The notes below the pieces were generated by a model, which worked only from the letters and a program-made list of their open reading frames with translations, was not told where the DNA came from and did not search any database. DNA of 64,000 bases from Chloroflexota bacterium (GTDB taxonomy: Bacteria; Chloroflexota; UBA11872; VXNJ01): NCBI GenBank assembly GCA_965261345.1, contig OZ253449.1, positions 1,536,001 to 1,600,000 of the forward strand, in the 5' to 3' direction. Positions 4,226 through 19,534 of the stretch are shown piece after piece (the first letter of the stretch is position 1; each line of letters begins with the position of its first letter). A program made the position numbers and the translations under genes.

Positions 4226-4252
4226 TTTGTGTGCTATATTCTGCTACACAAA
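4226..4252. promoter_or_regulatory. Inverted-repeat operator candidate over an extended -10-like element upstream of the T4SS/Tad operon
   Basis: TTTGTGT-N13-ACACAAA enclosing TGCTATATT in an AT-rich patch just before the regulator start. Confidence 0.45.
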
Positions 4253-4279
4253 CACAAAGCAAACAGAGAGTGCTAACCG

Positions 4280-4975
4280 GTGAATCACGCGCGACCGCTG
4301 CCCGCATTCGACCACCCCGATGGCCTACCGATCGATGACGGGCAGTGTCCGCTGCGCGCGGTTTTGGTCGTGGCTCCCGATGCGGCTGCGGCCGACGCGG
4401 TATTGCGCATTCTCCAGCGACACCGGACCTGCCGCTTTCTGGCCTGGGCGCAGAGTGCCGAGGGGGCGGTGCGACGCCTGTCGGCCGAACGCTTCGACCT
4501 GGTACTGCTGGTTGGCTTCGGTCCGACCGTGGCGCTGGCGGCGATTCGCCGCCTGCGCGCCTGCGTGGGCAGTGCGCGCACCCTGGTGCTGGCCAAATTT
4601 CCGGCCACCTCCGCCCTAATCGACCAGCTTGTCGCCGCCGGGGCCGGGGGGCTGCTCGATTGCAACCGCGGCTTCGCGCAACTGCCCGGGGCAGCGGTAA
4701 TCGTTGCCCGCGGTCACTCCATATTTCCGCCCGGCAGCCGATCCCCCGGGCCCGGGCCCGGATTGCTCCCCGGGGAGGGCCCGGAGAAATTGACCGCGCG
4801 CGAACGCGAGGTAATGGGGCTGATCGCCCAGGGCCGAACCGCCCGCCAGACGGCCGAGGCGCTCTCGCTTAGCGTCTATACCGTCGAGAACTACCTGCGG
4901 TCCTGTTATCGCAAGCTGCACTCGTCCAATCGGGTGCAGGCCTGCAACGTGGCCCGCTACTACGGGTTCATCTAG
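4280..4975 (+). CDS. NarL/LuxR-family regulator with degenerate receiver domain
   Basis: C-terminal LTAREREVMGLIAQG...TVENYL...KL...NRVQA HTH; REC-like N-terminus reads FDLVLLVG where the phospho-Asp is expected. Confidence 0.85.
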   Translation: MNHARPLPAFDHPDGLPIDDGQCPLRAVLVVAPDAAAADAVLRILQRHRTCRFLAWAQSAEGAVRRLSAERFDLVLLVGFGPTVALAAIRRLRACVGSARTLVLAKFPATSALIDQLVAAGAGGLLDCNRGFAQLPGAAVIVARGHSIFPPGSRSPGPGPGLLPGEGPEKLTAREREVMGLIAQGRTARQTAEALSLSVYTVENYLRSCYRKLHSSNRVQACNVARYYGFI

Positions 4976-4976
4976 G

Positions 4977-5384
4977 TTGGCGACTCCGATTGATGCGCCG
5001 GACCGGCGCGGCGGCAATCCCTATCGCCGCGCCGTTGCCGTGGTCGGGATCGGCCAGCTGCTTTCCATCCTGGCCCTGGCGGTGCTGGCCGAAGTGGCCG
5101 CCGCCGCCGAAATCGTGGCCGCGCCAACGGGCGCTGACCCGATCACCTTCGCGGTCAATTCGCTCAAGACTTTCCTGGCCACCATCGCCACCGTGGTGGT
5201 GGCGGCCTCGATCGGCTGGAAAGCGGTTGTGGCCTGGTCGGCCGGTAGCGTCGAGGCGCAACGCGAGGCGCAGCGCTTTGCGATGCAGTCACTGCTGGTC
5301 TACGGATTGGTGATGGCATTTAACTTCGGCCTGCTCCAGGGCGCGGTCGAGTACCTGGTCAACACGATGGGTGGTCGCGTCTGA
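4977..5384 (+). CDS. TrbC/VirB2-like T4SS pilin
   Basis: Leader plus two hydrophobic helices separated by a short charged loop (WSAGSVEAQREAQRF); lies before PrgI and VirB4. Confidence 0.6.
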   Translation: MATPIDAPDRRGGNPYRRAVAVVGIGQLLSILALAVLAEVAAAAEIVAAPTGADPITFAVNSLKTFLATIATVVVAASIGWKAVVAWSAGSVEAQREAQRFAMQSLLVYGLVMAFNFGLLQGAVEYLVNTMGGRV

Positions 5385-5812
5385 GCTACCCGATTCCGAT
5401 ACCGGCCGACATCGAAGATGTATCGCAGCGGTTCCCGATCGCCGGTTTTTACCTAACGCCCAGGGAGCTTATCTGGGTGGTGGTGGCGGCAACGATTGAG
5501 GCCGCCCTGGCCGCCCTGACGGTATCTGCTGGTTTTGCCTGGCCCACGCTGGCGGCGCTTGCGGTTCCACCGATCTGCTGCTTTGCGGTCTTGCAGCTAC
5601 CGGTCGAGGGCGCCGCGCTGGAACGCTGGCTAATAGATGTTGCCCGCTTCCATTTCCGGGGTCGGATGCTCTGCCGGGACCGCCCGCCTCAATCGGAGTC
5701 TGAGAGGCTGGAACTGCCGGTGGTTCTCTATACGATCGCCTGCCCCGGCCGCCGGCTGGCCAACGGTGAGCGGACCCGCGGCGGATACCGCTTTGAAATT
5801 TCTAACCGCTAG
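5381..5812 (+). CDS. PrgI/VirB3-like membrane protein (probable CTG start)
   Basis: In-frame extension from CTG overlapping the pilin stop gives ..IPIPADIEDVSQRFPIAGFYLTPRELIW + 2 TM + PVEG..LERWL, a PrgI-like pattern. Confidence 0.6.
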   Translation: MSYPIPIPADIEDVSQRFPIAGFYLTPRELIWVVVAATIEAALAALTVSAGFAWPTLAALAVPPICCFAVLQLPVEGAALERWLIDVARFHFRGRMLCRDRPPQSESERLELPVVLYTIACPGRRLANGERTRGGYRFEISNR

Positions 5813-8114
5813 GCTGGCCGGTCCGGCGGATCCGGATGGCACGCTTGACCTGGGAATCGCCGGCGTAACCGACGCCGGGATCGAACTTTCCGACGGAGGC
5901 TGGGTGGGAGCGTTGCTGCTTGACCCGGTCGATATCGAATCGCTCAACCCGGCTCAGTTGGAAGGGCTAATAGCCCGCCTGGCCACGTTCTGGGCCACGC
6001 TGGGGAACCCGTTGCAGCTATTGATTAGCAATCGCCGCTATGCAATCGATCACTACCTATCCGGGGCGATTGCGCGATGGCCGCAGCGTTGGGGCGCCAA
6101 GTTGGCGCTGCGCCGCAAGCTGCTAGGCGATGCGGGGTCTGGTGAATCATGGCGCGCGGTGCTCTCGGCCCACGCGGCCGCCTCCAATCTGCGATATCTC
6201 TCGGCCCTGGCGGTGTGCGGTGGACCGCCGGCCGGGGCAGCTGGCGGCGCCCAGGTACTGGCCGAATCGCTCGGGCAGGTCTCCCGGGCGCTGGAACAGG
6301 CCGGAATCGGCCACCGGCGCCTCGATGGCTTAGAACTTGCCCTGCAGCTGGAGCTGGCGTTCTTTGGCAGCGGGCGGGAACTGCGTTCGGCGCTCCAGTC
6401 GGTGGGGTCGATTGCGCTTGAAGGAAAGGTCAGCAATCTGGCTTTTGAGCAGGTCGACCCACTGCCCGAGTGGGTCAGGTTCGGCCTGCGCTCGATCTCC
6501 CTGCCAGCTGCTGTTGGTGAGCGCCAAATTGCCGCTGGTTACCTGCGGGCCCTGCCGCGCGCGGTAGACCCGGGGTGGCTGGCGCTGGCTGGAAAACTCG
6601 CCTGCGACTTCGACCTGGCCCTGCACGTCGTCCCGGTCGGTCAGGGCGAGGTGATGAACCGGGTCAAGCGGGCTGAACGCCAGATCGCCGGGACCCTGAT
6701 CGACGCCGAACTGGCAAATCCGGACAAGATTCGGGAGCAGCGCTGGCGGGCCGAGGACGTCGACCGGTTGGCCGAAGCAATGCGCGGGCGCGACGGCTAT
6801 TTCAAGCTGGCCGCCTTCTACGCCGTTAGCGCCGACGGCCCCGATGAGCTGGCCCGCGCCCGCGAGGGCCTCGCCGGGCAGTTGGCGGCCAGCTCGATGG
6901 TGGGCGCCGGGGCGGTCGGTTACCAGCGCGAAGCCTGGCTCTCGACCCTTCCACTGGGCCGTGAAAAGCTCCCACGCCGGCGTGGGATCACCTCGCGCCC
7001 GCTGGCCGCCGGAATTCCCTTCGCCGGTCGCGGCCGCTTCGATGAAGATGGCTGGCTGCTTGGATCCTGCGGGAGTGGATCCGGTCCGGCCGGTCCCTTC
7101 CTTTTCAACCCCTTTGGTCCCGGTTACGAGAACCCGCACCTGGCGATCTTGGGCCAAAGCGGGGCCGGCAAGACCCACCTGGCGCGGGCTATCGCCCACT
7201 GCGCCTGGCTCTGGGGGGCCGAGGTCGCCCTGCTCGATCCCAAGGACGAATACCGGGCGCTGGCGCGGCGCTGTCAGGGGTCAGAGATCGCGATCGAGCT
7301 CGGCGGCGGCTCAGCGCTCAACGTGTTCGACGGCGCCGCTGCCGCCGGACCGCGCGAATTTGCCGGGGCCCTGGCCGACGTGGCGCGCTTCTGGCGGGCC
7401 GCGCTGGGCAGGTTATCGGGCCAGCAGGAGACCCTGCTCGAATCGGCGATTGAGGCGGTCTGCGGCGCCCCGGCCAACCGAGCCGGCAGCCGCACCCCGC
7501 TGGCTTCCGACCTGGCGGCCGAAATCGCTAGCCGCCGGTCGGCTGATCCCGCCGATCCGGCCTCCGATCTGGCCGATCGGGTGCGCCGTTTTACCGGACC
7601 GGCCCTGGGCGGACTTTTCGGATCCCCGACCAATGTGAGCCTGGACAACGACTTCCTGCTGTTTCAGCTGGCCGGCCTGCGGGCCCAGGATGTAGATCTC
7701 TACGTGTTGGCGGTGCGCTTGTGCCTGCTCGCGCTAACCCGCTGGCTGGACCGACCGGCCGAGCGGCGGCTCATCCTGGTCGACGAGGCCTGGAGCCTTT
7801 TGCACGAACCGGCCGGAGCCAAATTCCTGCTCGATCTGGCCAAGACCGCGCGCTCGCGTGGGGCGATGCTGGTGCTGGTCACCCAGGACGCCACCGATTT
7901 TTCCGCCAACCCGCTGGCCCGCTCGATCCTGGCCAACTGTTCGGCCACGTTCATCTTCCGTCAGCACCACGCCCACGCCGCCAACCTGGGCGAGCTCTTC
8001 AACCTGGATCGCCCGGCCAGCGCCCGCATCGCCACCCTGCCGCGCGGCCAGGCGGTGGCCGCGTTGGCCAGCGGCGAGCGGATCCCGCTAAAGGTCCTTG
8101 ACCACCCTTGGTGA
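5793..8114 (+). CDS. VirB4/TraE-like T4SS ATPase
   Basis: NPHLAILGQSGAGKT Walker A, LDPKDEY, LILVDEAW Walker B, ARSRG, VTQD..DF, ILANC; TTG start at 5793 inferred. Confidence 0.88.
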   Translation: MKFLTARLAGPADPDGTLDLGIAGVTDAGIELSDGGWVGALLLDPVDIESLNPAQLEGLIARLATFWATLGNPLQLLISNRRYAIDHYLSGAIARWPQRWGAKLALRRKLLGDAGSGESWRAVLSAHAAASNLRYLSALAVCGGPPAGAAGGAQVLAESLGQVSRALEQAGIGHRRLDGLELALQLELAFFGSGRELRSALQSVGSIALEGKVSNLAFEQVDPLPEWVRFGLRSISLPAAVGERQIAAGYLRALPRAVDPGWLALAGKLACDFDLALHVVPVGQGEVMNRVKRAERQIAGTLIDAELANPDKIREQRWRAEDVDRLAEAMRGRDGYFKLAAFYAVSADGPDELARAREGLAGQLAASSMVGAGAVGYQREAWLSTLPLGREKLPRRRGITSRPLAAGIPFAGRGRFDEDGWLLGSCGSGSGPAGPFLFNPFGPGYENPHLAILGQSGAGKTHLARAIAHCAWLWGAEVALLDPKDEYRALARRCQGSEIAIELGGGSALNVFDGAAAAGPREFAGALADVARFWRAALGRLSGQQETLLESAIEAVCGAPANRAGSRTPLASDLAAEIASRRSADPADPASDLADRVRRFTGPALGGLFGSPTNVSLDNDFLLFQLAGLRAQDVDLYVLAVRLCLLALTRWLDRPAERRLILVDEAWSLLHEPAGAKFLLDLAKTARSRGAMLVLVTQDATDFSANPLARSILANCSATFIFRQHHAHAANLGELFNLDRPASARIATLPRGQAVAALASGERIPLKVLDHPW

Positions 8115-9274
8115 GACCGGCGCTGGCGCTGGCCCTGCTCGCGCTGCTGCTAATTGCCCCCATCGCCCGGGCCGAGGAACCGGAACCGATCGGCGGGCCG
8201 TCACCGGCGCCGGGTCCGATCTGGCCGATCGGCGGACTGGTCCTGGGGGAGGACTGGCAGAATCCGCAGGCCGCCGCCGCGGCGATTGGCAGTGGGATGG
8301 TGGCCGAGTTGACTCAGCTGATATCGGGCCCCCTAAATTGGGTCTGGCGGTGGCTGTTCCTGGTTCCCGACGCGATCGATCCGGCGCGGGCCGGCGAGGT
8401 CGACGCCGCCCTGGCCAGGATCGCCCCGGTCGGGGCCAGCGGGCCGATCTTTGACGGCCGCGGGGCCGCCGAAGCGGTCGAACAGGCCTGGCAGAATTCG
8501 CGCCGTATCGCCCTGTCGGCCCAGCAACCCTACCTGGGACTGGTGCTCGGCGCGTTCGTGCTCTGGAGCCTGGCGATGCTCTTCCTAGGTCGCCCGGTCG
8601 ACCTGGCGGCGGCGATGGGCCGGCTGGCGGTTGCATTAATCGGCGGTCTGGCTTCGTTCCAGTTCGTGGATATGCTTTTGCGCGCCGACGACCTGCTGGT
8701 AATCCTGTTCTCGCAGATCGGGGTTGGCCAGGTCCTGCTAAGCACCCCCAGCGAGCTGATTGCCAGTTGGCAGGGCGATGCCCAGCCAACCGATCTGGCC
8801 GATCTGGGCGGGGCGCTGCTGGAGGGGGTCTGGTACGGACTCTTCCGATCCTTCCTGCAACTGCTGCTGTTATTTGGCTTGGCCGCGATCGCGGTGCGGC
8901 TGCTGCTCCGCCTGGTCTGGATATGGGCCCTGACGGTGGCCGCGCCGCTGGTGCTGACCCTGGCGGTCTTCCCACCGGCAAGGCAGTTGCCGGCAATCTG
9001 GCTCAGACGGTTGCTGCGGGTGGTGTTTGAAAAGGCGGCGATGGTGCTGGGGCTCTCGGTCACCTTTTCGGTCATCGCGCTGCAGCCGCCGGGCCTGCTG
9101 AGCCTGGTGCTTGCGATCGCGGCGCTGTTCGTGGCCCAGGCCTTTCCCGGGCTGCTGCTGGACTCGCTTGCATCGGCCGCCGGACCGAGCGGGCAATCGG
9201 TAATTTCCCAGGTCAACGCCCGGATAACCCAGCTGCGCCTGGCCCGGCGGGCCCTCTCCCGGGTCGGCCAATGA
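8108..9274 (+). CDS. VirB6/TrbL-like polytopic membrane protein
   Basis: Signal peptide, many TM helices, RL.WIW.L.V.APL.L.L..FP......W pattern typical of VirB6-like proteins; follows VirB4. Confidence 0.6.
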   Translation: MVRPALALALLALLLIAPIARAEEPEPIGGPSPAPGPIWPIGGLVLGEDWQNPQAAAAAIGSGMVAELTQLISGPLNWVWRWLFLVPDAIDPARAGEVDAALARIAPVGASGPIFDGRGAAEAVEQAWQNSRRIALSAQQPYLGLVLGAFVLWSLAMLFLGRPVDLAAAMGRLAVALIGGLASFQFVDMLLRADDLLVILFSQIGVGQVLLSTPSELIASWQGDAQPTDLADLGGALLEGVWYGLFRSFLQLLLLFGLAAIAVRLLLRLVWIWALTVAAPLVLTLAVFPPARQLPAIWLRRLLRVVFEKAAMVLGLSVTFSVIALQPPGLLSLVLAIAALFVAQAFPGLLLDSLASAAGPSGQSVISQVNARITQLRLARRALSRVGQ

Positions 9275-9302
9275 CGAAGGCGGCTCTAATCGGCAACGTT
9301 CA

Positions 9303-9515
9303 ATGCCGCTAATCTGGCGCGCCGTCCTGCGTCGCCTAACGCTGCGGGTGGGCCTTGCAGCCATCCGGTTGCTAGAGCCCGGCGGGACCTCCGAGAGCGA
9401 TCCGAGCGCGCGCTGGTTGCTCCTTTCAATCCTCGCGCTGCTGGTCCTCCTCCTGCTACCCGGCCTCTTTACGGTCGTGCTGGCCGCCGGCCTGATCGCC
9501 GTCATCGGCAGCTGA
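9303..9515 (+). CDS. Small membrane protein
   Basis: 70 aa with a long C-terminal hydrophobic segment; its stop overlaps the next inferred start. Confidence 0.45.
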   Translation: MPLIWRAVLRRLTLRVGLAAIRLLEPGGTSESDPSARWLLLSILALLVLLLLPGLFTVVLAAGLIAVIGS

Positions 9516-11524
9516 CCCTGGACCGGCCAATTGCGCCGGATAATGACCGGCTGCCAATTAGTTATTTCCGGGCGTTGCCCGAACGGGCATGGGTCCTGCC
9601 GCTGCGTAGCGATAACGACCACGACCCCCAGGCTGGTTTGCACGCTGGTCTCAACTTCCTTACCGGGTCCGAATCAGTCGAGATCCGCTACCTGCTAAGT
9701 CCGGCCCCGAAAGGCGCAGCCGAATCGATTCGGCGTGCCGCCCAGCGCTATCGGCTGGGGATCCGGCCGGGCCGGTTCGGGTTGGCCGGACAGCTGGTTG
9801 CCGGAGCCGGCTGGCTGGTTCGGGGGCTGGCCGCACTTACCGCCACCGTTCCGCCGGCCCGCCCCCAGCCGCCTGACGAGCTCTTCTTGCAGATGACTGC
9901 GCGCGCCGACCAACCGCTGTTGACCTGTGCCATCCTGGTTCAAATCCGTGCCGGAGAGCGGCGAACCATCCTGATTGCGCGGGCCCTGTCCCAGGCCTTG
10001 GCCCAGCACGCCTCGCCCTGGAACCGACTCCGCTTAAAGCAGGTCAGATCGAAGCGGGCCGCCTATGAATTTGCCGGCTGGCAGATCCCGCGCCGCGACT
10101 GCTTTGCCCTAAGCGCGAGCGAGGCGGCCGCGCTCTGTGAACTTCCCGGGTCCGAGGCACGGGATCCCAACCTGAAGCGCGCCGCGGCCGCCCAGGTGCG
10201 AGCGGCAGCGATGGTGCCACGCGGCCAGGGCCTTTTCTTGGGCTGGGCCGAGGCCGGAGAGGACCGGCTGGATCAGCGTTACGGATTGGATATCGACGAT
10301 GCCCTAAAGCACGTCCTGACGGTCGGCCCGACCGGGACCGGCAAGAGTACCTTTCAGTACTGGTATGCCATATCGGCGATTGAATCCGGGCTGGGAATGC
10401 TGCTGCTCGATCCGAAGGGCGATCTGGCCCGGGCGGTCCTGGACGGCGTCCCCGAGGCGCGGGCCAAGGATGTGGCCTTTTTGGACTTTGCCGATACCGA
10501 CCGACCGATCGGACTCAATCCGCTGGCGGTGAGCGATCCGGCCGAGGCCGACCAGACCGCGGCTGCGGTTTCGACGATGATGCGTGAGCTGATCACCGGC
10601 GAGGGCATGCAGTGGGGGACCACGATGTCGCAGGCATTCTCCTACGGGTTTCGGACCCTGGCGGCGAATCCGCAGATCGAACCGACGATGCTGGACTTGG
10701 AACGCCTCTTTAGCGACCGGCAATGGCGCGCCGAGCTCGTCGCCAACGTCGACGATCCGTTCGTTGCCGCCTACTGGGCCAACCAGATCGACCGCCTCGG
10801 CGAGCGGCAGTTCGAGCTCAATTTCGGATCGGCGCTGCGGCGGATGGCGATCCTGGTAAACGACCCGCGGATTCGCAATATCCTGGCCCAGCCGCGGCCG
10901 GCGGTGCGCTGGGACCGCGCGCTGGCGCGGTCAGGGATCGTGCTGGTGAATCTGGACCAGGCCGATAACGCCCTCGGGATCGCCGGCTCGCGGCTGCTGG
11001 GCAGCATCATCGTTACCCAGTTTTGGCAAGCGGTGCTGCGCCGCCCGCGCCCGAACCGGGCTGCCTTTATCTGTCTCATCGACGAATTCCAGGAGTTCCT
11101 CGACACCGGCCGCAACATGGGCGCGTTCTTCGAGCGGGCCCGCAGCTATCGGGTGGGGATGTGCATCGCCACCCAGACCCTGGCGCAGCCGCGGCTGCGC
11201 CCGATCCGGCGCACGGTGAGCGTGAACGCCCGCACGCAGGTCATTTTTGGTGGGCTGCGCGACGAGGCCCGGCACTTTGCACTGGCCACCGAACCGTACT
11301 TTTCGGCCCGCGACCTCGATCGCCGCGATGCCTTCCAGATGACGGTCAGCACCCTGGTCAAGAATCAACCGGCGCCGCCGTTTTCGGCCCATGTGGCCGC
11401 CTTACCCGAGCCCGACTGGGACCGCCTGGAAGAGCGCCGCCAGCGCGCCCGCGCCCTATTTGGGGCCGACCGGGCAGCGCTCGCTGAAAGGGTTCGGGAG
11501 CGCTACGGGCCACGCGCCCAGTAG
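9512..11524 (+). CDS. VirD4/TraG-like coupling ATPase
   Basis: HVLTVGPTGTGKS, LDPKGD, FLDFAD...GLNPL, LIDEFQEF, ARSY, ATQ; start is CTG 9512 or TTG 9575. Confidence 0.85.
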   Translation: MTLDRPIAPDNDRLPISYFRALPERAWVLPLRSDNDHDPQAGLHAGLNFLTGSESVEIRYLLSPAPKGAAESIRRAAQRYRLGIRPGRFGLAGQLVAGAGWLVRGLAALTATVPPARPQPPDELFLQMTARADQPLLTCAILVQIRAGERRTILIARALSQALAQHASPWNRLRLKQVRSKRAAYEFAGWQIPRRDCFALSASEAAALCELPGSEARDPNLKRAAAAQVRAAAMVPRGQGLFLGWAEAGEDRLDQRYGLDIDDALKHVLTVGPTGTGKSTFQYWYAISAIESGLGMLLLDPKGDLARAVLDGVPEARAKDVAFLDFADTDRPIGLNPLAVSDPAEADQTAAAVSTMMRELITGEGMQWGTTMSQAFSYGFRTLAANPQIEPTMLDLERLFSDRQWRAELVANVDDPFVAAYWANQIDRLGERQFELNFGSALRRMAILVNDPRIRNILAQPRPAVRWDRALARSGIVLVNLDQADNALGIAGSRLLGSIIVTQFWQAVLRRPRPNRAAFICLIDEFQEFLDTGRNMGAFFERARSYRVGMCIATQTLAQPRLRPIRRTVSVNARTQVIFGGLRDEARHFALATEPYFSARDLDRRDAFQMTVSTLVKNQPAPPFSAHVAALPEPDWDRLEERRQRARALFGADRAALAERVRERYGPRAQ

Positions 11525-11645
11525 TGGCCGGTCAGGGACTGCAAATTTCCGTCTAGCCGGATGCCCCGGCCCGGCAACAGGATTTGGCAGCGGGGAACTT
11601 CTCGCCCGCAAATGATCCTCCAACGTCAAAGCTGCAAGGTCTGAT

Positions 11646-12041
11646 TTGATATCCAACTTTCCGCCTGAAACTCCAACCCCGCTGGTAGTCCTCGGCCTGG
11701 CCGGGGCGGCCCTGCTGGCGCTGGGCCTGCGGCGCCAGCATCCTCTGGTCGAACCCCGATCGGAACCGCGCGAATTTGTAATCCTGCCGCCGCCCGACAA
11801 CCGCCGGCCGGCCGGCCAGATGCTGGCCGAAATCGCCAACACTCCGGAACTGGGGCGCCGTTCGCTGCCGGGCTTGGCGGCCAAGCCGCAGGTAGCCGCG
11901 CTGGGCCGGTCGCTTCAGATCAACCGCCGGGAAATTTCCTACCGCGATTTTTGTTGTGGTGGATTGGCGATCGGCCACGCGGCCCGCCTGGAGCGTTTTT
12001 ATCCCGGCATCCGGGTGCTGCCGCAGGAGGCAATTTCATGA
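11646..12041 (+). CDS. Hypothetical membrane-anchored protein
   Basis: N-terminal TM; fills the operon gap and its stop overlaps the Flp ATG (ATGA). Confidence 0.5.
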   Translation: MISNFPPETPTPLVVLGLAGAALLALGLRRQHPLVEPRSEPREFVILPPPDNRRPAGQMLAEIANTPELGRRSLPGLAAKPQVAALGRSLQINRREISYRDFCCGGLAIGHAARLERFYPGIRVLPQEAIS

Positions 12042-12235
12042 TCGGCCCAATGTTGCAGCGCCTGCGTTCCGCGCTCGGCCGGTTCATCTCGGCCGGCGAC
12101 GGTTCGGCCACCGAGTACATCATCATCGCCGGCCTGGCGGTGATCATCCTAGGGGCCGCAGTCAGCGCCTGGAACGAGGGCCTGCAGACCTACCTTGAAG
12201 AACTGCTTACCGACTTACAAGCGCTGGGCGCCTAA
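12038..12235 (+). CDS. Flp-type (type IVc) pilin
   Basis: AGGAGG RBS, 65 aa, basic leader, DGSATEY followed by a hydrophobic helix. Confidence 0.75.
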   Translation: MIGPMLQRLRSALGRFISAGDGSATEYIIIAGLAVIILGAAVSAWNEGLQTYLEELLTDLQALGA

Positions 12236-12661
12236 TTGCCGATCGGTCAATCGGGCGCCGCCCTGCGGCTGGCCGGCCGGAATGGATCGGCCGCCACCGA
12301 GGCGATCCTGGCGCTTATGGTGCTGGTACCGCTGTTTGCGGCAATGATTTCGCTGGGCGACCTCTGGGCCGACCAGCTGGCGCTAGATCACGCCGCCGCC
12401 GCTGCGGTCCGGCGTGCGGCCGTCCAGGGCGGCGATTCGCCCGAACTGCGATCGCAGATTGCCGCCGATCTGCTGGCTGCCGGCCTCCCGGCCGCGGCGG
12501 TATCGGCCACCGTCATGCCGGCCAGACCCTCCTGGCAGGAGCCGATTACGGTTTCGCTGGAATTGCCACGGCGACTTCAGCTTCCGCTGCTGGGCGGCTG
12601 GGACCTGGTGCTCCAGAGCCGTTTCAGCGGCCTAAATGAAGTGGGACCCGGCCCGATTTGA
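12236..12661 (+). CDS. TadE-like pseudopilin
   Basis: RNG/SAATE prepilin motif with E+5, hydrophobic helix, LDHAAAAAVRRAAV. Confidence 0.8.
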   Translation: MPIGQSGAALRLAGRNGSAATEAILALMVLVPLFAAMISLGDLWADQLALDHAAAAAVRRAAVQGGDSPELRSQIAADLLAAGLPAAAVSATVMPARPSWQEPITVSLELPRRLQLPLLGGWDLVLQSRFSGLNEVGPGPI

Positions 12662-13131
12662 CCGTCCCGAAACTCTCCGGCGAGCGGGGGTCGGTGGGAG
12701 TTCAGGCGCTGCTGCTGCTCGGCCTCTTCCTGCTGATTTTTGCGCTGGTGGTCGAAATTGGCGCCCTGCGTACCAGACAGCTCCGCCTGCAGGCGGTCTT
12801 CGACCGGGCGGCCCTGGCCGGTGTCGGGGCGATCGATGGTGCCGAGCTGGCGGCCGCCGGCCGACTGGTCCTTGACCGGAGCGCAGCCGAGGCGCGAACG
12901 CGCCGCTATCTGGAGCTGAACCTGGCCCCGCTGGAGGGCCAGCTGGTGGGTCAGAACGCTGCCCAGGCCGCCCGGTCGGCCCTGGTCGGAGTCGTTATCA
13001 GCGGGCCCGACCAGGGCACGGTGACCCTCTCCGGGCGGCTCAACCTGGCGGTTGGCTACCTGGGGTTGGCGGGGATCGAATCCCCGAAAAGTTTCCAATT
13101 TCGGGCAACCGCCCGGCTGAAAGGACATTGA
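12658..13131 (+). CDS. TadG/Tad-domain pseudopilin
   Basis: GERG/S leader, TM, LVVEIG...LQAVFDRAALAG motif. Confidence 0.75.
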   Translation: MTVPKLSGERGSVGVQALLLLGLFLLIFALVVEIGALRTRQLRLQAVFDRAALAGVGAIDGAELAAAGRLVLDRSAAEARTRRYLELNLAPLEGQLVGQNAAQAARSALVGVVISGPDQGTVTLSGRLNLAVGYLGLAGIESPKSFQFRATARLKGH

Positions 13132-13548
13132 TTGGCAATGCAGAGGATTTCGTGGCCGCTTATGGCTCTGGCAGTGGTGTTGTTGGCCGGTGGCCTGCTC
13201 ATCGGATTGCGCCTCAGCGGGAGCGGCTGGCCGGTCGAACCGACCCCGGCGTCGCAACCGGACGGGCCGCCCCAGGCGCTGGCGGCGGTCGCGATCGAAA
13301 TCGGCTCGGAGGCGGGTTCCGGTCGGTTGCAACTTGCAGTCGGCGAGGAATCGCGGTTGTGGGTTGAGACCGAATTGGAAGACGGCAGCCAGCGCCGCGA
13401 CGCACCGGTTGTTTGGTCCAGTTCCAACCCGCAGGTTGCCGCCGTCGGTCCGGATGGAACGTTGCTGGCGCACTCGCGTGGGCAGGTCACGGTGCGGGCC
13501 GACCTGAGCCCGCTTTCGGCCGAGATCGAGGTCACGGTTGATGGTTAG
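13132..13548 (+). CDS. Membrane-anchored Ig-like (Big_2) protein
   Basis: N-terminal TM; VVWSSSNPQVAAVGPDGTL.A...GQVTVRA. Confidence 0.75.
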   Translation: MAMQRISWPLMALAVVLLAGGLLIGLRLSGSGWPVEPTPASQPDGPPQALAAVAIEIGSEAGSGRLQLAVGEESRLWVETELEDGSQRRDAPVVWSSSNPQVAAVGPDGTLLAHSRGQVTVRADLSPLSAEIEVTVDG

Positions 13549-15193
13549 GCGGCCGCCGTGGTCGGCGGCTGCGGCAATCCTCGGCCGGCTGCTGCTGCTC
13601 GCGCTGCTGCTCGCCCTGCCCTTGGGCGCTCCGGCAAGGGCCGATCACGGGCAGTGGGAGGAGCGCCCGGTATGGATCGAACCGGTCACCGAAACCCGGA
13701 CGCGGACGGTTCCGGGTCACTGGGATGAGCAGCAGCGATGGATCCCCGGCTACACAATCCGCCGGGTAGTTACCGAAACCCGGCCGGTTGAAATTGAATA
13801 TCAGGCGTTCGTGCCGCAGGGCCATTGGGAGACGGTTCGGGTCTGGCTGGTGGCCTATGAGCAGCGCTGCACGCAGGTGTGGCAGTGGTACCAGCAGTGC
13901 TCGAATTTCTGGACCAACTGCCAGCTTGTCTACGGCCCGCAGGAACAATGCGAACGGGTTGACGTCTCGCATTGGGAGGAGTCCCAGGAATGGGTGAACA
14001 CCTCCTACTGGGAGACCCGCACGCGGATCGAGATGCGGGAGTTTGAGACCACGATCGAGGAAGAGTTCCCCGGATACTGGGAGTCCTACCAGGTCTGGGT
14101 CCCTTCGCGGACCGAAACCTACCAGCACACCCTGGCCGCGGGCCACTGGGAAACCGAGCTGGTCTGGGTGCTGCTCGAACATGATGCCGACCCGGAGCCG
14201 GTCGGCGAACCCGGGCCGGAGGGATCGGGCTGCGTACCGCCTGGCATCTACAAGGTCGTAGACAACTACGTCGGAACCCACCAGTGGACCGATTCAAACG
14301 GAGTGGTCCATTACGAGACGACCACCTCGGGCGGGGACAACCCGTGGTGGGCGGTCCGGCTGGGGTCGATCTCTAAGGGAGTTGGCTCGCGCTACGATTC
14401 CCAGGCATTCAATGGCCGCGGCATCGGCGCCGACGGCAAACTGCTTGCCGGGCGTTTCTATCGCAATTACCTCCCCGACGGGCAGTGCTACCGGGCGGTG
14501 AGCGTGGTGTTCTTCCAGGACGACACGGTAAGGACTGGCGATCTCGACCACCAGACCCAGACCGGGAACCCGGGCGAGCCGACCGAAACGCCGACCGAAA
14601 CCCCGGGCGAGCAACCGGTGCCACCGACTGAGAACCAGCCAACTGAGAACCCCATCGACCAGGTTCCCGGGGGTGATCAGGGACCGGCTGTGACCCCAAC
14701 TCCAACCGGTCCAGGGTCAGACCCCGACCAGGCCGGCGAACCCTCCACCCCGACCATGGAAGGTCCAGGATCGGTCGATCCCCCGCTGGCTCCGGTTGGT
14801 GGATTTGACTTTGCGGTGGTGCTCGAGGGCACCACCCATCGGCCGGGACCGGGCCGGCCGGCGATCGAGCTCCTGCGCGGGGCCCCGGTTGCGGTCTACC
14901 TGGTACCGCGCCTGCAGACCCCGGCCGACGCTCCCGGCGCCGGGGTGAGCTTTACCGGCTGGCAATTCGTCGCCGGGCCCAATGACCATCCCCAGGGTCC
15001 GCGCGCCGGCGAGCGCTTTTCGCCGCTGCAACCGCTGCGACTTCGGATCGACGACCTCCCGCCGGACTCCCAGCAGGCCATCCAAATCAGCTTGCAGGTC
15101 ACAGTGCGGGTGAGCGGGTCCGGCGGGGAGATGGAAGATTTCGACCTCCCGGTGGTCCTGACCGCCACCATCTTCTACCAGGCGATAACTTGA
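13538..15193 (+). CDS. Secreted Trp-repeat protein, candidate adhesin
   Basis: Signal peptide (ARA), repeated G/S-H/Y-W-E..W units, Cys cluster, Pro/Thr/Glu linker, beta-rich C-terminus. Confidence 0.7.
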   Translation: MMVRRPPWSAAAAILGRLLLLALLLALPLGAPARADHGQWEERPVWIEPVTETRTRTVPGHWDEQQRWIPGYTIRRVVTETRPVEIEYQAFVPQGHWETVRVWLVAYEQRCTQVWQWYQQCSNFWTNCQLVYGPQEQCERVDVSHWEESQEWVNTSYWETRTRIEMREFETTIEEEFPGYWESYQVWVPSRTETYQHTLAAGHWETELVWVLLEHDADPEPVGEPGPEGSGCVPPGIYKVVDNYVGTHQWTDSNGVVHYETTTSGGDNPWWAVRLGSISKGVGSRYDSQAFNGRGIGADGKLLAGRFYRNYLPDGQCYRAVSVVFFQDDTVRTGDLDHQTQTGNPGEPTETPTETPGEQPVPPTENQPTENPIDQVPGGDQGPAVTPTPTGPGSDPDQAGEPSTPTMEGPGSVDPPLAPVGGFDFAVVLEGTTHRPGPGRPAIELLRGAPVAVYLVPRLQTPADAPGAGVSFTGWQFVAGPNDHPQGPRAGERFSPLQPLRLRIDDLPPDSQQAIQISLQVTVRVSGSGGEMEDFDLPVVLTATIFYQAIT

Positions 15194-15828
15194 GTAGGCT
15201 GCTGTCGCTGCAGGCCGGGATGCTACTGCTTGCGCTGCTTTTGGGCCTGGCGGCGGCGTTGATTTGGATTAGCGACGGGCGAACCGGCCCGGCGATCGTT
15301 GCCGATGTTGATGTTGCCGCCGGCGCCCGGATCCTCCCTGACGATCTGCGCTTGGTTACCGTACCGCGGGCGGCCCTGCCCCCGGGTGCGATCGCCGATA
15401 AGGCCCAGGCGGTCGGAATGTATGCGCGCGGTCCACTGCCGGAGGGTCAATACCTGCTGCCCGGTAACCTAGCGAGCGATCCGGCCGGCGCTCTGGCCGA
15501 GTCAGCGGTTCAGATTCCCGCTGACTGGGCGCTGGTGGGTGTGGCAATGTCCTACCAAAATGCCTTGGGCGGGGCGCTAACGCCGGGGCAAAGCGTAGAC
15601 CTCTATGCGATCGGCAAGCGCGCCGGATCGACTCCGGTTCTGATCGTTCCCGGCGCGAGGCTTATCGACCTGCGCAATGGTTATGGAGCAAGCGCCGGCC
15701 CCGGTGGTGACGGCGACCGCGCCGACATTATGGAATCGGTGCTGCTGGCCCTTCCGCGGCAGCTGGTGGAAGCGGTCGTGGCCAGGGTTTCTGATTCGAT
15801 CTTCGTGCTGGCGCTAAGGCTCGAGTGA
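15190..15828 (+). CDS. CpaB/RcpC-like SAF-domain pilus assembly protein
   Basis: TM, VADVDVAAG..I..DDL SAF domain, G.L.PG..VDL motif. Confidence 0.8.
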   Translation: MSRLLSLQAGMLLLALLLGLAAALIWISDGRTGPAIVADVDVAAGARILPDDLRLVTVPRAALPPGAIADKAQAVGMYARGPLPEGQYLLPGNLASDPAGALAESAVQIPADWALVGVAMSYQNALGGALTPGQSVDLYAIGKRAGSTPVLIVPGARLIDLRNGYGASAGPGGDGDRADIMESVLLALPRQLVEAVVARVSDSIFVLALRLE

Positions 15829-17096
15829 TGTTGGCCGAGGTCGCCCCCGACCGCCCCGCCGATTCCGGCGAGCTGGATCTGCAGCTGGATTTCCTGCGCG
15901 AGCAGCTGCTGGGCCAGGTTGGTCCGGCCCAGCTGGATCCGTTCCGCCAGGCTGAGGGGCAGCGCGAGCAGTTGCGCGACCTGGTTGGCACGCTGCTGGC
16001 CCAGCTGGATCCGGCCGCCCCGGCCGGCCCCGACCGGGTTGAGGAACTGCTCTCGGAGCTTGTCGGCCTGGGCCCGTTGGACCCGCTGCTTAGCGATCCG
16101 GCGATAACCGACATCCTGGTCAACTCGCCCGATGAGGTCTGGGTGGAGCGTCGGGGGCGCCTTGAGCGGACCGGAATCTCTTTCCGCAGCCTGGACCAGC
16201 TGACCGCGTTGATGGAGAAGATCGCCTCCCTGGTCGGCCGCTCGCTGAGCCTGCAGACCCCCTGCGTCGACGCCCGAATGGCCGATGGCTCGCGCGCCAA
16301 CCTGGTAATTGCCCCGGTCGGAGGTCCGTGCCTGTCGATCCGGCGACACCGCCAGGAGCTGCGCCCGCTGGCCGGATCGGCCTCGTCCTGGACCGCTGGC
16401 GGGGGCATGAGCGAGGTGATGGCCGGGTTATTTGAGCGGGCCGTGACCGCCCGCTGCAATTTCCTGATCGCCGGATCGACCGGAGCTGGCAAATCGACCC
16501 TACTGGCGTCACTGCTAGCGCATGTGCCGCCCGGCCAACGGCTGGTGGTAATTGAGGACACCCAGGAACTCCCCCTCCCGGGCGGCGGCCACACGGTGCG
16601 CTTGCAGTGCGTGCACGACCAACGGCTGGCCAGCTCCGGCCAGCGCCGGGTGGGACTGGCCGATCTGGTGGTCAACGCTCTGCGGATGCGGCCGGATCGC
16701 CTGGTGGTGGGTGAGATCCGCACTCCGCGCGAGGCCTACGTGACGATCGAGGCGCTAAACACCGGTCACCCGGGATCGGGCTCGACCATTCATGCCGACT
16801 CGGCGATCGATGCCCTGGGCCGACTGGAGATGCTAATCCGGCGCGAGCACGGTGGATTTTCTGCGGTCGACGTGCGCGAACCGATCGCCCGCGCGTTCGA
16901 TTACGTCGTCCAGGTCGCCCGCCTGGATTCGGGCCGCCGGGTGGTGCGCGAGGTGGTCGAGGTTGCCGGGCTGGACGGGGACAACTACGACCTGCGTCCG
17001 GTAATCAACTTCAACCCGACCGGCGGATTCGTGGCCGATCCCAACTACAAGATGGGGCCGCGGGCGCTGGGCCGCTTCGCCGCCATCCGGACCTAG
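15825..17096 (+). CDS. tadA: CpaF/TadA pilus ATPase
   Basis: GLGPLDPLL.DP.ITDILVN, VDARMADGSR, GSTGAGKS, IEDTQEL, LRMRPDRLVVGEIR, NTGHPGS.STIHA. Confidence 0.93.
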   Translation: MMLAEVAPDRPADSGELDLQLDFLREQLLGQVGPAQLDPFRQAEGQREQLRDLVGTLLAQLDPAAPAGPDRVEELLSELVGLGPLDPLLSDPAITDILVNSPDEVWVERRGRLERTGISFRSLDQLTALMEKIASLVGRSLSLQTPCVDARMADGSRANLVIAPVGGPCLSIRRHRQELRPLAGSASSWTAGGGMSEVMAGLFERAVTARCNFLIAGSTGAGKSTLLASLLAHVPPGQRLVVIEDTQELPLPGGGHTVRLQCVHDQRLASSGQRRVGLADLVVNALRMRPDRLVVGEIRTPREAYVTIEALNTGHPGSGSTIHADSAIDALGRLEMLIRREHGGFSAVDVREPIARAFDYVVQVARLDSGRRVVREVVEVAGLDGDNYDLRPVINFNPTGGFVADPNYKMGPRALGRFAAIRT

Positions 17097-17121
17097 TCCC
17101 GGCCCCGCCCTCAAGTCCTCG

Positions 17122-17967
17122 ATGGCATCCCTGCTACTTTTCCTGGCGATCGTCGTCAATCTCCTGGCGTTAAGCGGGATCGCCTCGCGCCTGGTCGCCA
17201 GGCTGGTCCGACTGGCGCCGGCGCGGGCGCTGGACCGGTTAATTCGGGCGAGCCGCCTGCCGGTGGGTCTGCCGGTGATCCTGGGGCCGACCGTGCTGGC
17301 GATGGGGGCAACCGCTCGCTGGTTATGGGAGTATTCGATCCTGCTGGCGATCGTTTTGGCGCTGGCGCTGGGGATAGCCCCGTTCGTTGCCCTCTGGCTT
17401 CGGGCCGCGGCCCTGGCAGTGCCGCTCGAGCTGGAGGTCATTGCCGTCACGCGGCAGCTGGCCGCGCACCTGCGGGCGGGCGAGAACCTGTACCGATCGA
17501 TCGTCGCGGTGGCGGGCGCCCAGGCCCGGGAGACCCGCACCAGCCTGTTGCGGGCGTCCAACGAATTCCGACTCGATCGCCCGCTGGCAACCGCCCTGGC
17601 CCATCAGGCCGAACTGGCCGAATCGGCGCCGCTGGCGCTCCTGCTCGGGGTGCTGGCCCAGGTTGCCGATCACGGAAGTACCGGGGAATCGGCCGCCGCG
17701 GTGCTAGATCTCTTGGCCCAGCAGCTAGAGCAGGAGCAGCGGTCGCGCGCCGATTTGAAGGAACAGACCCGCGGGGTGGCGATCCAACTGTACGTAGTTG
17801 CGGGCGCCATCCCGCTTATGGCGTTCTGGCTCTGGCAGACGTCGCCGCACGGCTACTCAGTATTCGAACTCCCGCTCGGAAAGGCCCTGCTGCTCCCGCT
17901 CGGGGTGGCGGTCGAACTCCTGGGGCTGCTGCTTTTCTGGTACTGGACGCGGACCGGTCAAACGTGA
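17122..17967 (+). CDS. TadB-like (T2SSF) membrane protein
   Basis: LAAHLRAGENL, EFRL..PL..AL, TM pattern; follows TadA. Confidence 0.75.
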   Translation: MASLLLFLAIVVNLLALSGIASRLVARLVRLAPARALDRLIRASRLPVGLPVILGPTVLAMGATARWLWEYSILLAIVLALALGIAPFVALWLRAAALAVPLELEVIAVTRQLAAHLRAGENLYRSIVAVAGAQARETRTSLLRASNEFRLDRPLATALAHQAELAESAPLALLLGVLAQVADHGSTGESAAAVLDLLAQQLEQEQRSRADLKEQTRGVAIQLYVVAGAIPLMAFWLWQTSPHGYSVFELPLGKALLLPLGVAVELLGLLLFWYWTRTGQT

Positions 17968-18752
17968 GTGGGCCGGCGCTGGCGATCGGGATTCTGGCAC
18001 TGGCGGCGGCGGCCCTGCTTATCGCGGCACTTGGCGATCGCATCAGCGGTCACTGGCCATTCCGGGGAGCGCCTGCGGCCGGCGGGCCGCCCCGCCAACC
18101 GGGATCGGGGCCGGCGGCGGTTTCACGCCGGCTGCGCTTGACCCAGTTGGGGATTGCCGCCGGCGGCCTGGCCACGGGCCTGCTGCTTAGGCCCACGGCG
18201 CCGCTGCCGGGGATCCTGCTGGCGCTGGCGGCGCCGGCCATCGCACTGCTGCTGCCCAGGATCAAACGTCAGCGGGCGGCCGAAGCCAGGCGGGCCCGCC
18301 TGATGTCCCAAATTCCGCTGCTGATTGCCCAACTGCGCGCCCAGGTGGCGATGGGTAACGGCCTGGTGCGATCGCTGCGCACGATCGCTAACTCCCCGCT
18401 GTCGAGTCCCGAGCTCGCCCATCAATTGCGGTCGGTGCTGGCCGCCCACGGCCTGGGCCGCCCGATGGATGTGGCCCTGCTCGAATTCGGCAAGGATCTG
18501 GGATCGGTGGAGATCGAAATCCTGGCGCGCGCGGTCGCCCAGGCGCGGCGGCTGGGTAGCGGTTTGGATGAGACCCTGGCGCGATCCGAATTCGAGCTAT
18601 CGGCAGTTCGCCGCCGCCGGGTCGCGGCCGCCGCCGCGCGGGCCCAGGTGCGCGCCCAGCTCCTGATCGTTAGCTGCTATCTGCCCGCGTTCCTAGCGCT
18701 GGTGCTGGCGCCGTTGTTCATCAGTGTGTTGGGTGGCCTGGGGAGTCGATGA
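17964..18752 (+). CDS. TadC-like (T2SSF) membrane protein
   Basis: GTG overlapping the TadB stop; IPLLI..L...V.MG.GL, LG.P...AL, C-terminal LPA TM. Confidence 0.78.
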   Translation: MSGPALAIGILALAAAALLIAALGDRISGHWPFRGAPAAGGPPRQPGSGPAAVSRRLRLTQLGIAAGGLATGLLLRPTAPLPGILLALAAPAIALLLPRIKRQRAAEARRARLMSQIPLLIAQLRAQVAMGNGLVRSLRTIANSPLSSPELAHQLRSVLAAHGLGRPMDVALLEFGKDLGSVEIEILARAVAQARRLGSGLDETLARSEFELSAVRRRRVAAAAARAQVRAQLLIVSCYLPAFLALVLAPLFISVLGGLGSR

Positions 18753-19213
18753 ATTTCCCGGGTTGCTGTCTCTCGAGCGGCCTGGCGACCGGGCCGGGAG
18801 GTCTGCTGGCGGGACTGTTGATCTGGGCGGCGGTCACGGATCTGACCCGCCGCCAAATCTCCAACCGCATGGTTGCGATCGGTCTGGCGTTGGGACTGGG
18901 CCTGGCCGTTTGGCAGGATGTGTTGGGATGCAGCGTACTCGGGGCGGTTGCCGGTGGGTTATTGCTTTCCCTCCCCAATCTGTTCGCCCGCGGCTCGGTC
19001 GGGATGGGCGACATCAAATTGTTTGCCGTAATCGGGCTGTTCGGTGGTCCGGCGACCCTGGCCTGGGTTCTCGGCCTCAGCGCCCTGGGAGCCTGGCTCT
19101 ACTGGTTGGGCCAAAAATTGCTCGTTTCGCACCGAGAAAAATCCATCGCGATTCCGCTGGCGCCCTTTGCCCTGCTGGGTGATCTGGCAGCATCGCTTTC
19201 CGGGTTTTACTGA
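18749..19213 (+). CDS. A24 prepilin peptidase (TadV/CpaA-like)
   Basis: TDL.RRQISN, GMGDIKL aspartyl motifs, IPLAPF. Confidence 0.85.
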   Translation: MNFPGCCLSSGLATGPGGLLAGLLIWAAVTDLTRRQISNRMVAIGLALGLGLAVWQDVLGCSVLGAVAGGLLLSLPNLFARGSVGMGDIKLFAVIGLFGGPATLAWVLGLSALGAWLYWLGQKLLVSHREKSIAIPLAPFALLGDLAASLSGFY

Positions 19214-19534
19214 GCGCTCCGGAGTTGTGCCCACCTGCCGTGATAGCGGGAACTCTAGCGAAGGTGGAAACGCGACATTGACCCGCCGGCCGAGCCCGTA
19301 GGAATAACCATTTGAGATGTAACTGCCGCTTTACCGCCACGGTGATTGACCAGAGGATCGGAACCGGTAACAAACTGTCAATGGGGCAGTAATTGCCACC
19401 ACGACGCATTGCACGGTCCAGTCAAATGTCCAATAACATAGGGAAGGCATGCGCCAACACGGCGGACCGTCGCCGCGGTTGTAATGGCGGCCGCCTGCCA
19501 GATTGACATTACAGCCAGAGTAAAAGGAACAAAT

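Follow-up and report, generated by a model that had tools for sequence, protein, structure and literature searches.

A relaxase-free operon of type IV secretion and Flp/Tad pilus genes in a Chloroflexota chromosome, a probable compacted derivative of a conjugative-element class

Why should a bacterial chromosome keep, in one run of genes, both the core of a conjugative type IV secretion system (T4SS) and the parts of a Flp/Tad pilus, with no relaxase to lead a DNA strand out of the cell? The question is raised by positions 4280-19213 of the window, a 64,000-nucleotide stretch of a Chloroflexota genome (G000:C1:1536001-1600000); the genome, G000, is a single contig of 2.39 Mb and is 95% complete. 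The nearest database proteins to those of the window come from metagenome-assembled genomes (MAGs) labelled Chloroflexota. We consider it probable that the operon descends from a class of conjugative elements that include a Tad pilus of their own, and that it has been compacted and kept in the chromosome after loss of relaxase, recombinase and cell-wall hydrolase. The architecture as such is not unique; the novelty lies in the compacted form that lacks these three components.

The unit comprises 18 genes, all on the plus strand, co-oriented and mostly overlapping; 12 of the 17 junctions overlap or are at most 1 nucleotide apart, and the widest gap is 121 nucleotides. An original prediction, made from the sequence alone, had described such an operon, and a check of the open reading frame (ORF) translations placed every one of its genes where it had been claimed. 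The features are as follows.

4211-4240, plus strand: sigma-70-like promoter match, 40 nucleotides 5' of the first gene and the sole match in 3800-20500
4280-4975, plus strand: NarL/LuxR-type response regulator with a receiver-like N-terminus and a GerE helix-turn-helix (HTH) domain (GerE, 4.3e-14; MadR family, 1.4e-13, full length)
4977-5384, plus strand: small secreted membrane protein of two helices, called 'VirB2-like' from its position and topology only; no family match
5477-5812, plus strand: VirB3/PrgI-like small protein with two N-terminal transmembrane (TM) segments, overlapping the virB4 ORF; no family match
5637-8114, plus strand: VirB4-family ATPase (AAA_10, 1.8e-13; TraG P-loop; NF045971, 1.5e-33; TIGR00929, 2.5e-31)
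8108-9274, plus strand: VirB6-like polytopic membrane protein (TrbL, 0.0066, below cut-off)
9303-9515, plus strand: 70-residue protein (small70) with a C-terminal TM helix; no family match
9575-11524, plus strand: predicted type IV coupling protein (T4CP) with a VirD4/TrwB fold (AlphaFold2 model, pLDDT 82; Foldseek, TrwB 1.2e-12, Cag-beta 1.8e-12)
11646-12041, plus strand: 131-residue single-TM protein in the slot of the relatives' MOBC relaxase; no family match
12038-12235, plus strand: Flp prepilin, recognised by reading the sequence; 48-70% identical in relatives
12236-12661, plus strand: TadE pseudopilin (PF07811, 1e-5)
12658-13131, plus strand: TadG/TadE-like pseudopilin (PF13400, 0.0038, below cut-off)
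13132-13548, plus strand: membrane-anchored Big_2 (Ig-like) protein (PF02368, 4.9e-6)
13538-15193, plus strand: 551-residue secreted Trp-rich repeat protein; no family match
15190-15828, plus strand: CpaB/RcpC (SAF, 1.9e-12; TIGR03177, 7.6e-18)
15825-17096, plus strand: TadA/CpaF ATPase (T2SSE, 1.8e-41)
17122-17967, plus strand: TadB (T2SSF, 1.1e-10)
17964-18752, plus strand: TadC (T2SSF, 2.1e-6), with a GTG start picked at the overlap with the TadB stop
18749-19213, plus strand: A24 prepilin peptidase (PF01478, 3.9e-13)

Is the first half a T4SS? The VirB4 label, given in the original prediction, is well founded: in addition to the AAA_10 and NF045971 matches, the protein matches PDB entry 4ag5 (6.5e-15), and a Walker A motif (GQSGAGKT) and a DEAW box can be read in its translation. 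The coordinates listed are those of the longest ORF; its true start is probably later, since relatives align only from about residue 31-36. The VirD4-like label is weak by sequence, the Pfam match lying below its cut-off, and clear by fold. TrwB and Cag-beta rank above HerA and DotL in the Foldseek search, and a profile of 15 relatives matched DotL (1.2e-8) and TrwB (1e-6) in the PDB. By its modelled fold the protein, which has an N-terminal alpha/beta domain of 230 residues, is a true coupling-protein homologue. The first gene is the predicted LuxR, a full-length NarL-type response regulator with a GerE match, and the VirB4 module of the sister family (f2) likewise begins with a gene of this type. 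Two further labels hold in part. The VirB6-like protein has its TrbL match below cut-off, but its eight hydrophobic segments (a signal and about seven TM segments) agree with the name, and the gene comes after VirB4 in all relatives. The protein called PrgI matches no family, but has two N-terminal TM segments and overlaps virB4; by tblastn the gene is conserved in the genus and weakly so in the sister family. As for the 70-residue protein, a similar small ORF was seen by eye in the same gap of four genus genomes, and four of its five listed strain single-nucleotide polymorphisms (SNPs) are synonymous.

The small protein encoded at 4977-5384 is a case of its own. It has no Pfam or NCBIfam match and fits no pilin model; its predicted structure is a helix hairpin (pLDDT 86) with a signal peptide, a topology that fits a VirB2-like pilin. 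Foldseek returned generic helical hairpins (best E 1.1), with no pilin among the matches listed. The protein is lineage-restricted and extremely conserved: across two families it is 73-90% identical, where VirB4 reaches only 37-58%, and within the genus it is 67-89% identical over the spans aligned by tblastn. A search of 1.84 billion representative proteins gave only two clusters with E<1e-10, and one of 185,579 species genomes gave 16 loci, all in Chloroflexota MAGs; the family is confined to this order.

The second half is the complete Flp/Tad set that had been predicted, in its monoderm form: TadA, TadB, TadC, Flp, the A24 peptidase, TadE, TadG and CpaB are all present, and all but Flp, which was identified by reading, and TadG, which falls below cut-off, have family matches, as does Big_2. 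In Flp, G/SATEY stands ahead of a hydrophobic helix (read by eye), which we take to be a prepilin processing site of the G/xxxxEY type. The best NCBIfam model for TadA is TIGR03819, 'TadA family conjugal transfer-associated ATPase' (5.4e-74, below its cut-off). The Tad module of the sister family includes the Big_2 gene too, and the Trp-rich protein is a conserved member of that module, 32-53% identical in relatives. The latter consists of about nine G/H-x-W-E...W repeats followed by a Pro/Thr/Glu-rich linker, in which a strain variant has an in-frame deletion of 15 nucleotides at 14630; a search of the ESM Atlas with this protein gave no usable match.

Which parts of a conjugative element are missing? 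Relaxases were sought in the whole G000 genome with seven Pfam models, namely six classical families and PF13814. PF03432, PF08751, PF03389, PF02486, PF01076 and PF13814 gave no match, other relaxase models lying outside the search; the seventh, PF07514, matched over 41 columns only, in the HD part of an OB-fold/HD-domain protein encoded 230 kb away, and this protein was rejected as a relaxase. The claim of a relaxase-free operon is upheld within this range of models. PF13814 is likewise absent from all seven genus genomes and from all 19 genomes of the window's own family (G000 included), as against 19 of 38 in the sister family. By tblastn, neither the sister-family relaxase nor the sister-family ParA/CpaE-like protein, the query for a TadZ/CpaE localisation ATPase, has a match in G000. 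Profile searches with the 18 operon proteins found no relaxase, integrase, hydrolase or secretin family, in agreement with what had been predicted. No recombinase was seen in the operon or among the 10 flanking ORFs scanned, and no att-like direct repeats flank it beyond matches of chance length; a tRNA-Glu gene lies 4 kb from the operon and is not adjacent to it.

What remains is conserved. The original prediction had named a conserved relaxase-free block as support in advance, and the operon is intact in six of the seven species of the genus, with VirB4 present in five of the six other genomes. By tblastn, 17 of the 18 genes are found in colinear order in G002, G003 and G005, 16 in G001, and five in G004, where the contig ends. 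Identities within the genus range from about 32-36% for the peptidase through 45-52% for CpaB, 56-58% for VirB4 and about 70% for the coupling ATPase to 74-78% for TadA; the 131-residue protein is 42-52% identical. Strain variation gives a hint of purifying selection. In a strain of 0.8% divergence (contig X5), 25 synonymous and 10 non-synonymous changes stand among the 35 listed of 117 SNPs, a tool-selected subset confined to 5484-11516, the operon's first half; in a second strain, of about 4% divergence, the indels within genes are of 15 and 3 nucleotides and all 1-nucleotide indels are intergenic. It is this excess of synonymous SNPs and the in-frame coding indels that suggest such selection.

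An assembly artefact is ruled out, as the operon is colinear in five other species of the genus and is bridged by contigs of three other studies: the contig of about 4% divergence spans 4117-19497, that of 0.8% divergence spans 5211-19500, and two contigs of the third study jointly cover 6594-18094. A fourth run, X1, possibly the source of the assembly itself, was counted apart from these three.

The position of the operon varies within the genus. In G002 the block occupies precisely the junction (1618134|1618194 of G000) at which two genes are direct neighbours in G000, and the dehydrogenase gene next to the operon in G000 is at a distance of 17-47 kb in G002, G003 and G005. G002 also holds a degraded second copy (G002:C1:1455000-1472000, about 13722-14665), in which VirB4 is reduced to its last 185 residues and the VirB6-like protein to 83. 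The idea that this fragment is closer to the window's operon than is the intact copy of G002 was rejected, the identities over the same 185 residues being 73.0% and 72.4%.

The surroundings in G000 are housekeeping genes: recA on the opposite strand, an alcohol dehydrogenase, a HARE-HTH protein, and MFS and ABC transporters. The nearness of recA had been offered as a functional hint, which is given up: the gene is ordinary housekeeping, runs on the other strand and has the alcohol dehydrogenase gene between itself and the operon. The first gene past the operon (19484-20206), whose coiled-coil product has a HARE-HTH domain at its C-terminus (3.2e-4, below cut-off), is not kept beside the operon in relatives. 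No other 15-kb window of the genome has a GC content as high as the operon's (67.6%, against a mean of 61.7% and a standard deviation of 2.2). The operon exceeds its flanks by 2-12 points in four further genomes of the genus as well, and these differ in their own GC. Recent transfer was not concluded from the high GC, which fits a bias in the composition of these genes equally well.

What did the operon derive from? In the sister family, the same genes are split over two loci. The first carries, in order, the LuxR gene, a 516-residue ParA/CpaE-like ATPase, the two-helix protein (74-78% identical to that of the window), a VirB3-like protein (detected in two of five loci), VirB4 (37-40%), the VirB6-like protein (37-38%) and an M23 peptidase. 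The second begins with the coupling ATPase (60-63% identical in the ATPase domain, the N-terminal domain being encoded in a separate or a fused ORF) and a Replic_Relax gene, and continues with Flp, TadE, TadG, Big_2, the Trp-rich protein, CpaB, TadA (55-58%), TadB, TadC and the peptidase, the Tad genes having the same order as in the window. Five full copies of this second locus occur in four genomes, together with a sixth (G019) that lacks TadA-C. In all six, the Replic_Relax gene (PF13814, 1.2e-32, full profile) adjoins the coupling ATPase and takes the position of the window's 131-residue protein. PF13814 belongs to the MOBC relaxase superfamily in the CONJscan scheme, and is reported to be found with VirD4-type coupling proteins (PMC5357655).

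Where the two sister-family loci share a contig (G037, G040 and both copies in G370), they are co-oriented and 37-49 kb apart, in islands rich in insertion sequences (IS). The modules of the two G370 copies are 88-93% identical and the DNA between them is different. ImmA-like M78 and HTH_3 genes lie upstream in the G370 island, divergent from the LuxR gene, and a tyrosine integrase and a second Replic_Relax gene follow M23; in G020, too, an integrase comes after M23. All seven sister-family genomes with a close TadA also hold a close VirB4, a tally of kin rather than of independent cases and given without a statistic. A supposed coupling-ATPase/Tad module without VirB4 in G019 and G036 was withdrawn: TadA-C are gone from G019, and a close TadA is absent from both genomes.

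The islands also contain other genes. That of G370 (G370:C1:285000-364999) encodes a type IIG Eco57I/MmeI-like methylase-nuclease, a PLD + SNF2 helicase and two IS110 copies, and has at each end one IS481-type gene, the two in opposite orientation. Downstream of the sister-family M23 gene, beside the VirB4 module, lie genes for large secreted-looking proteins of trypsin-PPC, RCC1-repeat/glucose-sorbosone dehydrogenase and leucine-rich-repeat types.

More distant relatives extend the picture. Searches with the coupling ATPase, VirB4 and TadA used one sample of 401 genomes of the phylum; the tallies include genomes flagged as unpublished (G251, G356, G292, G200 and G174), and every locus described here comes from other genomes. 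Matches were found in 93 genomes for the coupling ATPase, 100 for VirB4 and 229 for TadA (E <= 1e-60). In about 30 genomes outside the genus (a hand count from two tables), the coupling ATPase lies 1-7 kb after VirB4 on the same strand; this proximity being common in the sample, the window's state is the ordinary one and the sister-family split the odd one. Outside the order, 19 genomes have a TadA at 45-55% identity, against roughly 40% for ordinary TadA copies. Among these, VirB4 lies 4-27 kb off on the same strand and contig in 11 (families f8, f13, f18 and f36) and on another contig in five, and none was found in three. In seven of seven loci fetched from four further families, TadA, TadC, (Flp, TadE, TadG), CpaB and VirB4 are contiguous; M23 and the coupling ATPase come next in three of the seven (G138, G094 and G154 carry M23). 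Clusters of Tad genes and VirB4 occur in at least six Chloroflexota families.

In the G138 locus the upstream genes include PrgI- and ParA-like ones; the coupling ATPase is followed by a Replic_Relax gene (1.2e-11) and, 7 kb further on, by a large serine recombinase. Between relaxase and recombinase (9980-13870 of the fetched locus) lie Prok-E2_D, JAB-like and AAA ATPase genes, with matches near or below cut-off, which form a cassette of the ubiquitin-like conjugation type, possibly carried as cargo of the element.

Beyond the phylum, the linear plasmid NZ_CP108778.1 of Embleya sp. NBC_00896 (Actinomycetota) encodes on one strand a PrgI family protein, a VirB4-like protein, a T4CP, a replication-relaxation protein and an NlpC/P60 protein, and continues on the same strand with SAF/CpaB, TadA, TadB, TadC, TadE and TadG; its proteins show 28%, 29% and 35% identity to those of the window. 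PLSDB/MOB-suite types this plasmid as 'non-mobilizable' despite its annotated VirB4-like, T4CP and replication-relaxation genes, and a Streptomyces sp. BHT-5-2 record with VirB4 and T4CP matches is typed in the same way.

These relatives change how the locus is to be seen. It had been put forward as an undescribed architecture rather than a decayed integrative and conjugative element (ICE). Tad genes with VirB4 are found in several Chloroflexota families, on an annotated Embleya plasmid and on Cutibacterium acnes plasmids already in print; homologous loci carry a MOBC relaxase (all six sister-family loci, G138 and Embleya) and a tyrosine or serine recombinase (the sister family and G138); and the two halves are unlinked in the sister family. 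Both kinds of finding, homologues with relaxase and recombinase and halves that lie apart, had been named beforehand as counting against the prediction. Judged by gene content, an element class with a Flp/Tad pilus inside a monoderm-type T4SS cluster appears to span Chloroflexota and also to include actinomycete plasmids.

The course of events we consider probable would then run as follows. The ancestral element would have carried a regulator, a ParA/CpaE-like ATPase, a small pilin-like protein, VirB3-like, VirB4 and VirB6-like proteins, a hydrolase, a coupling ATPase, a MOBC relaxase, the Tad genes and a recombinase. In the window's genus, relaxase, recombinase, hydrolase and ParA-like gene would have been lost and the remainder retained as a single transcription unit. 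The apparatus would be domesticated rather than decaying; all its other genes are intact across deep divergence despite these losses.

How such a machine would work can be outlined. The response regulator would turn the operon on, the A24 peptidase would process Flp, TadE and TadG, and TadA, TadB, TadC and CpaB would assemble a Flp pilus that grips another cell and draws it near, with the Big_2 and Trp-rich proteins as accessory or adhesive parts. VirB4, the VirB3-like and VirB6-like proteins and the small two-helix protein would form a channel in the envelope, to which the soluble coupling ATPase would pass a substrate. Capture of a partner by the Tad pilus and transfer of DNA or protein by the T4SS is plausible. 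What the genes are, their descent from an ICE, the losses and the conservation we take as shown, together with a hint of purifying selection; that pilus and channel co-operate, which way transport goes and what is carried are points that we infer. Since the genus has no relaxase and yet keeps the coupling ATPase, the substrate would no longer be a relaxase-led element strand. The retention of that ATPase argues for export of a recognised substrate, and export of protein or nucleoprotein to the contacted cell is the role we tentatively put first. Relaxase-independent exchange or uptake of DNA, for which the loss of ComEC leaves room as a Ced-like role, is possible and ranks second, and adhesion alone with a vestigial T4SS is unlikely.

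Several points weigh against this derivation and mode of action. Co-transcription of the 18 genes is suggested by their spacing alone, no RNA run containing the stretch having been found; the single promoter match is weak by itself (one found, against a mean of 2.4 in shuffled sequences), and terminator-like sites are no commoner than in shuffles (11 found, 11.8 expected). Neither family nor fold backs a pilin role for the two-helix protein, and the coupling ATPase has no predicted TM segment or membrane anchor, unlike canonical T4CPs. The hydrolase usual for monoderm T4SSs is absent from the operon, the only M23 gene being an unlinked one at 782 kb, and relaxases of families beyond the seven models could have escaped the search. 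G006, a complete genome, has neither VirB4 nor the coupling ATPase nor a close TadA, so that the operon is dispensable. The Tad genes stand upstream of VirB4 in the four further families and downstream of the coupling ATPase in the window. The SNP counts are confined to the subset described above. Joint action of pilus and T4SS is deduced from gene context, and the polarity, loss here and not gain elsewhere, from outgroup parsimony rather than from a rooted tree.

Of the alternatives, the one that survives best, and is nonetheless unlikely, is that two unrelated functions share one transcript: the Tad pilus would be selected for adhesion, and the VirB4 half would be the leftover of a dead element or serve pilus-related export only. 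The separate loci of the sister family are consistent with this, as is the reported fact that Tad pili alone serve adhesion in many bacteria (PMC13170226). The VirB4 half also diverges faster, VirB4 and the VirB6-like protein of the sister family being less similar to those of the window than are TadA and the coupling ATPase domain. A dead remnant would hardly show VirB4-half ORFs that are intact in six species at 44-89% identity, or strain SNPs in that half that are predominantly synonymous. The joint presence of close TadA and VirB4 in seven of seven sister-family genomes, the contiguity of Tad and VirB4 in four further families and the 'conjugal transfer-associated' name of the nearest NCBIfam TadA model likewise argue for a connection between the halves.

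Less likely again is a counterpart of the archaeal Ups and Ced systems or of Helicobacter ComB, in which the Tad pilus would join sister cells and a VirB4/VirB6-like channel would import or exchange DNA, in place of a lost ComEC route. ComEC (PF03772) is indeed absent from G000 and from all seven genus genomes (four of them single-contig); 35 of 38 genomes in the sister family have it, as do 8 of 12 from the own family's other genera. The genus genomes are also smaller (1.9-2.4 Mb, against 3-4 Mb). The lack of a detected relaxase in G000 suits such a system, and archaeal Ced is reported to be homologous to conjugation machinery (PMC9905601). Matches to the CedB and CedD models exist at the level of the P-loop, but are tiny, covering 46-58 residues with 15-25 bits against cut-offs of 600-700; membership of the CedB/CedA families failed, with 25.5 bits against a cut-off of 700 for NF041017 and 21.3 against 600 for NF053655. 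ComB and classical Ced run without a VirD4-type coupling protein, which is kept at high identity here. The operon is not a necessary substitute for ComEC, since G006 lacks both, and adjacency to recA is trivial. In its specific form, with Flp pili joining sister cells of this ComEC- and relaxase-less genus and a channel with a soluble VirD4-like ATPase exchanging chromosomal DNA, the proposal is more doubtful still; if true, it would make the operon a conjugation machine domesticated for recombination or repair in a streamlined genome.

Least probable is that the operon is still a machine for DNA conjugation or mobilisation, with the Tad pilus as mating pilus and an unrecognised relaxase (a new family, the 131-residue protein in the relaxase slot, or an enzyme acting in trans) nicking the chromosome or another element: the conserved core resembling mating-pair formation (MPF) genes together with the coupling ATPase, the relaxase-bearing relatives, the clean block insertion or deletion in G002 and the degraded second copy there are in its favour, and it is countered by the failure of seven relaxase families to turn up in a nearly complete single-contig genome, by the absence of PF13814 throughout the genus, by flanks with neither recombinase nor direct repeats, and by a 131-residue protein that has one TM segment and no nuclease-like match.

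The derivation from conjugative elements, to return to the reading we prefer, would place the window at the end of a dated exaptation series running from a full ICE through a split island to a compact relaxase-free operon in a reduced genome. It would be a clean example of conjugation machinery retained after relaxase loss, and would point to an unstudied class of joint Tad and T4SS loci. What is known of mating contacts in monoderm bacteria concerns mainly surface adhesins. Should the Tad pilus of these elements prove to be their mating pilus, an entire class of Terrabacteria conjugative systems would have been overlooked. Among open papers, to which the literature search was confined, no experimental study of a Tad-linked T4SS was found.

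Among known systems, the closest in composition are conjugative elements of the monoderm MPF-FATA type. The window shares with them VirB4 (its best NCBIfam model being of the CD1110 family), PrgI/VirB3-like and VirB6-like proteins and a coupling ATPase of TrwB fold, and its relatives keep the hydrolase, the MOBC relaxase next to the coupling protein and a serine or tyrosine recombinase, as reported for such elements (PMC5357655). It differs from them in the absence of relaxase, recombinase and hydrolase, in the soluble coupling protein, in the two-helix protein and in having a Tad pilus in the unit. A T4SS with the same VirB2-like/PrgI-VirB3/VirB4/VirB6 set in reduced-genome Terrabacteria has been described for Patescibacteria, where it is mostly relaxase-less, is thought to be co-opted for another role and acts alongside type IV pili (PMC12102498); the exaptation series proposed here parallels that proposal. 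The systems described in that article differ from the window's operon in that the gene for the coupling protein mostly lies at a distance from virB4, and in having pili other than Tad pili of the same operon. The sole VirB4 link seen to Patescibacteria is an identity of 23-24% to one Peregrinibacteria protein.

Pili belonging to the superfamily of type IV filaments (TFF) are encoded with T4SSs elsewhere. The thin pilus of the IncI plasmid R64, an aid to the formation or stabilisation of mating pairs, is one such case (cited in PMC12102498); R64-type pili are type IVb and belong to diderm plasmids with a relaxase, while the window has a Tad/Flp pilus in one relaxase-free operon of a monoderm. 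Archaeal Ups and Ced resemble the window in idea only, combining a pilus for cell contact with a relaxase-free VirB4/VirB6-like DNA channel; they lie at separate loci, and Ced has no VirD4-type coupling protein. In a survey of TFF systems, Tad is given as the type most often found on plasmids (PMC6668835), and in Frankia Tad-like operons are reported to coincide with putative prophages, with VirB4/VirD4-like genes near integrase/excisionase genes (PMC2266912).

The nearest layout is that of actinobacterial linear plasmids. In those of C. acnes, conjugation genes for a VirB4-family ATPase and a DNA translocase lie directly upstream of the tad locus, and the authors call the functional link between pilus and transfer 'unclear' (PMC5696575). 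Like the window, the C. acnes and Embleya plasmids thus place VirB4-family and translocase or coupling genes just upstream of tad in a monoderm; unlike it, the Embleya plasmid has a relaxase, the C. acnes plasmids have an FtsK-like translocase, the order of the Tad genes differs, and identities are only 28-35%.

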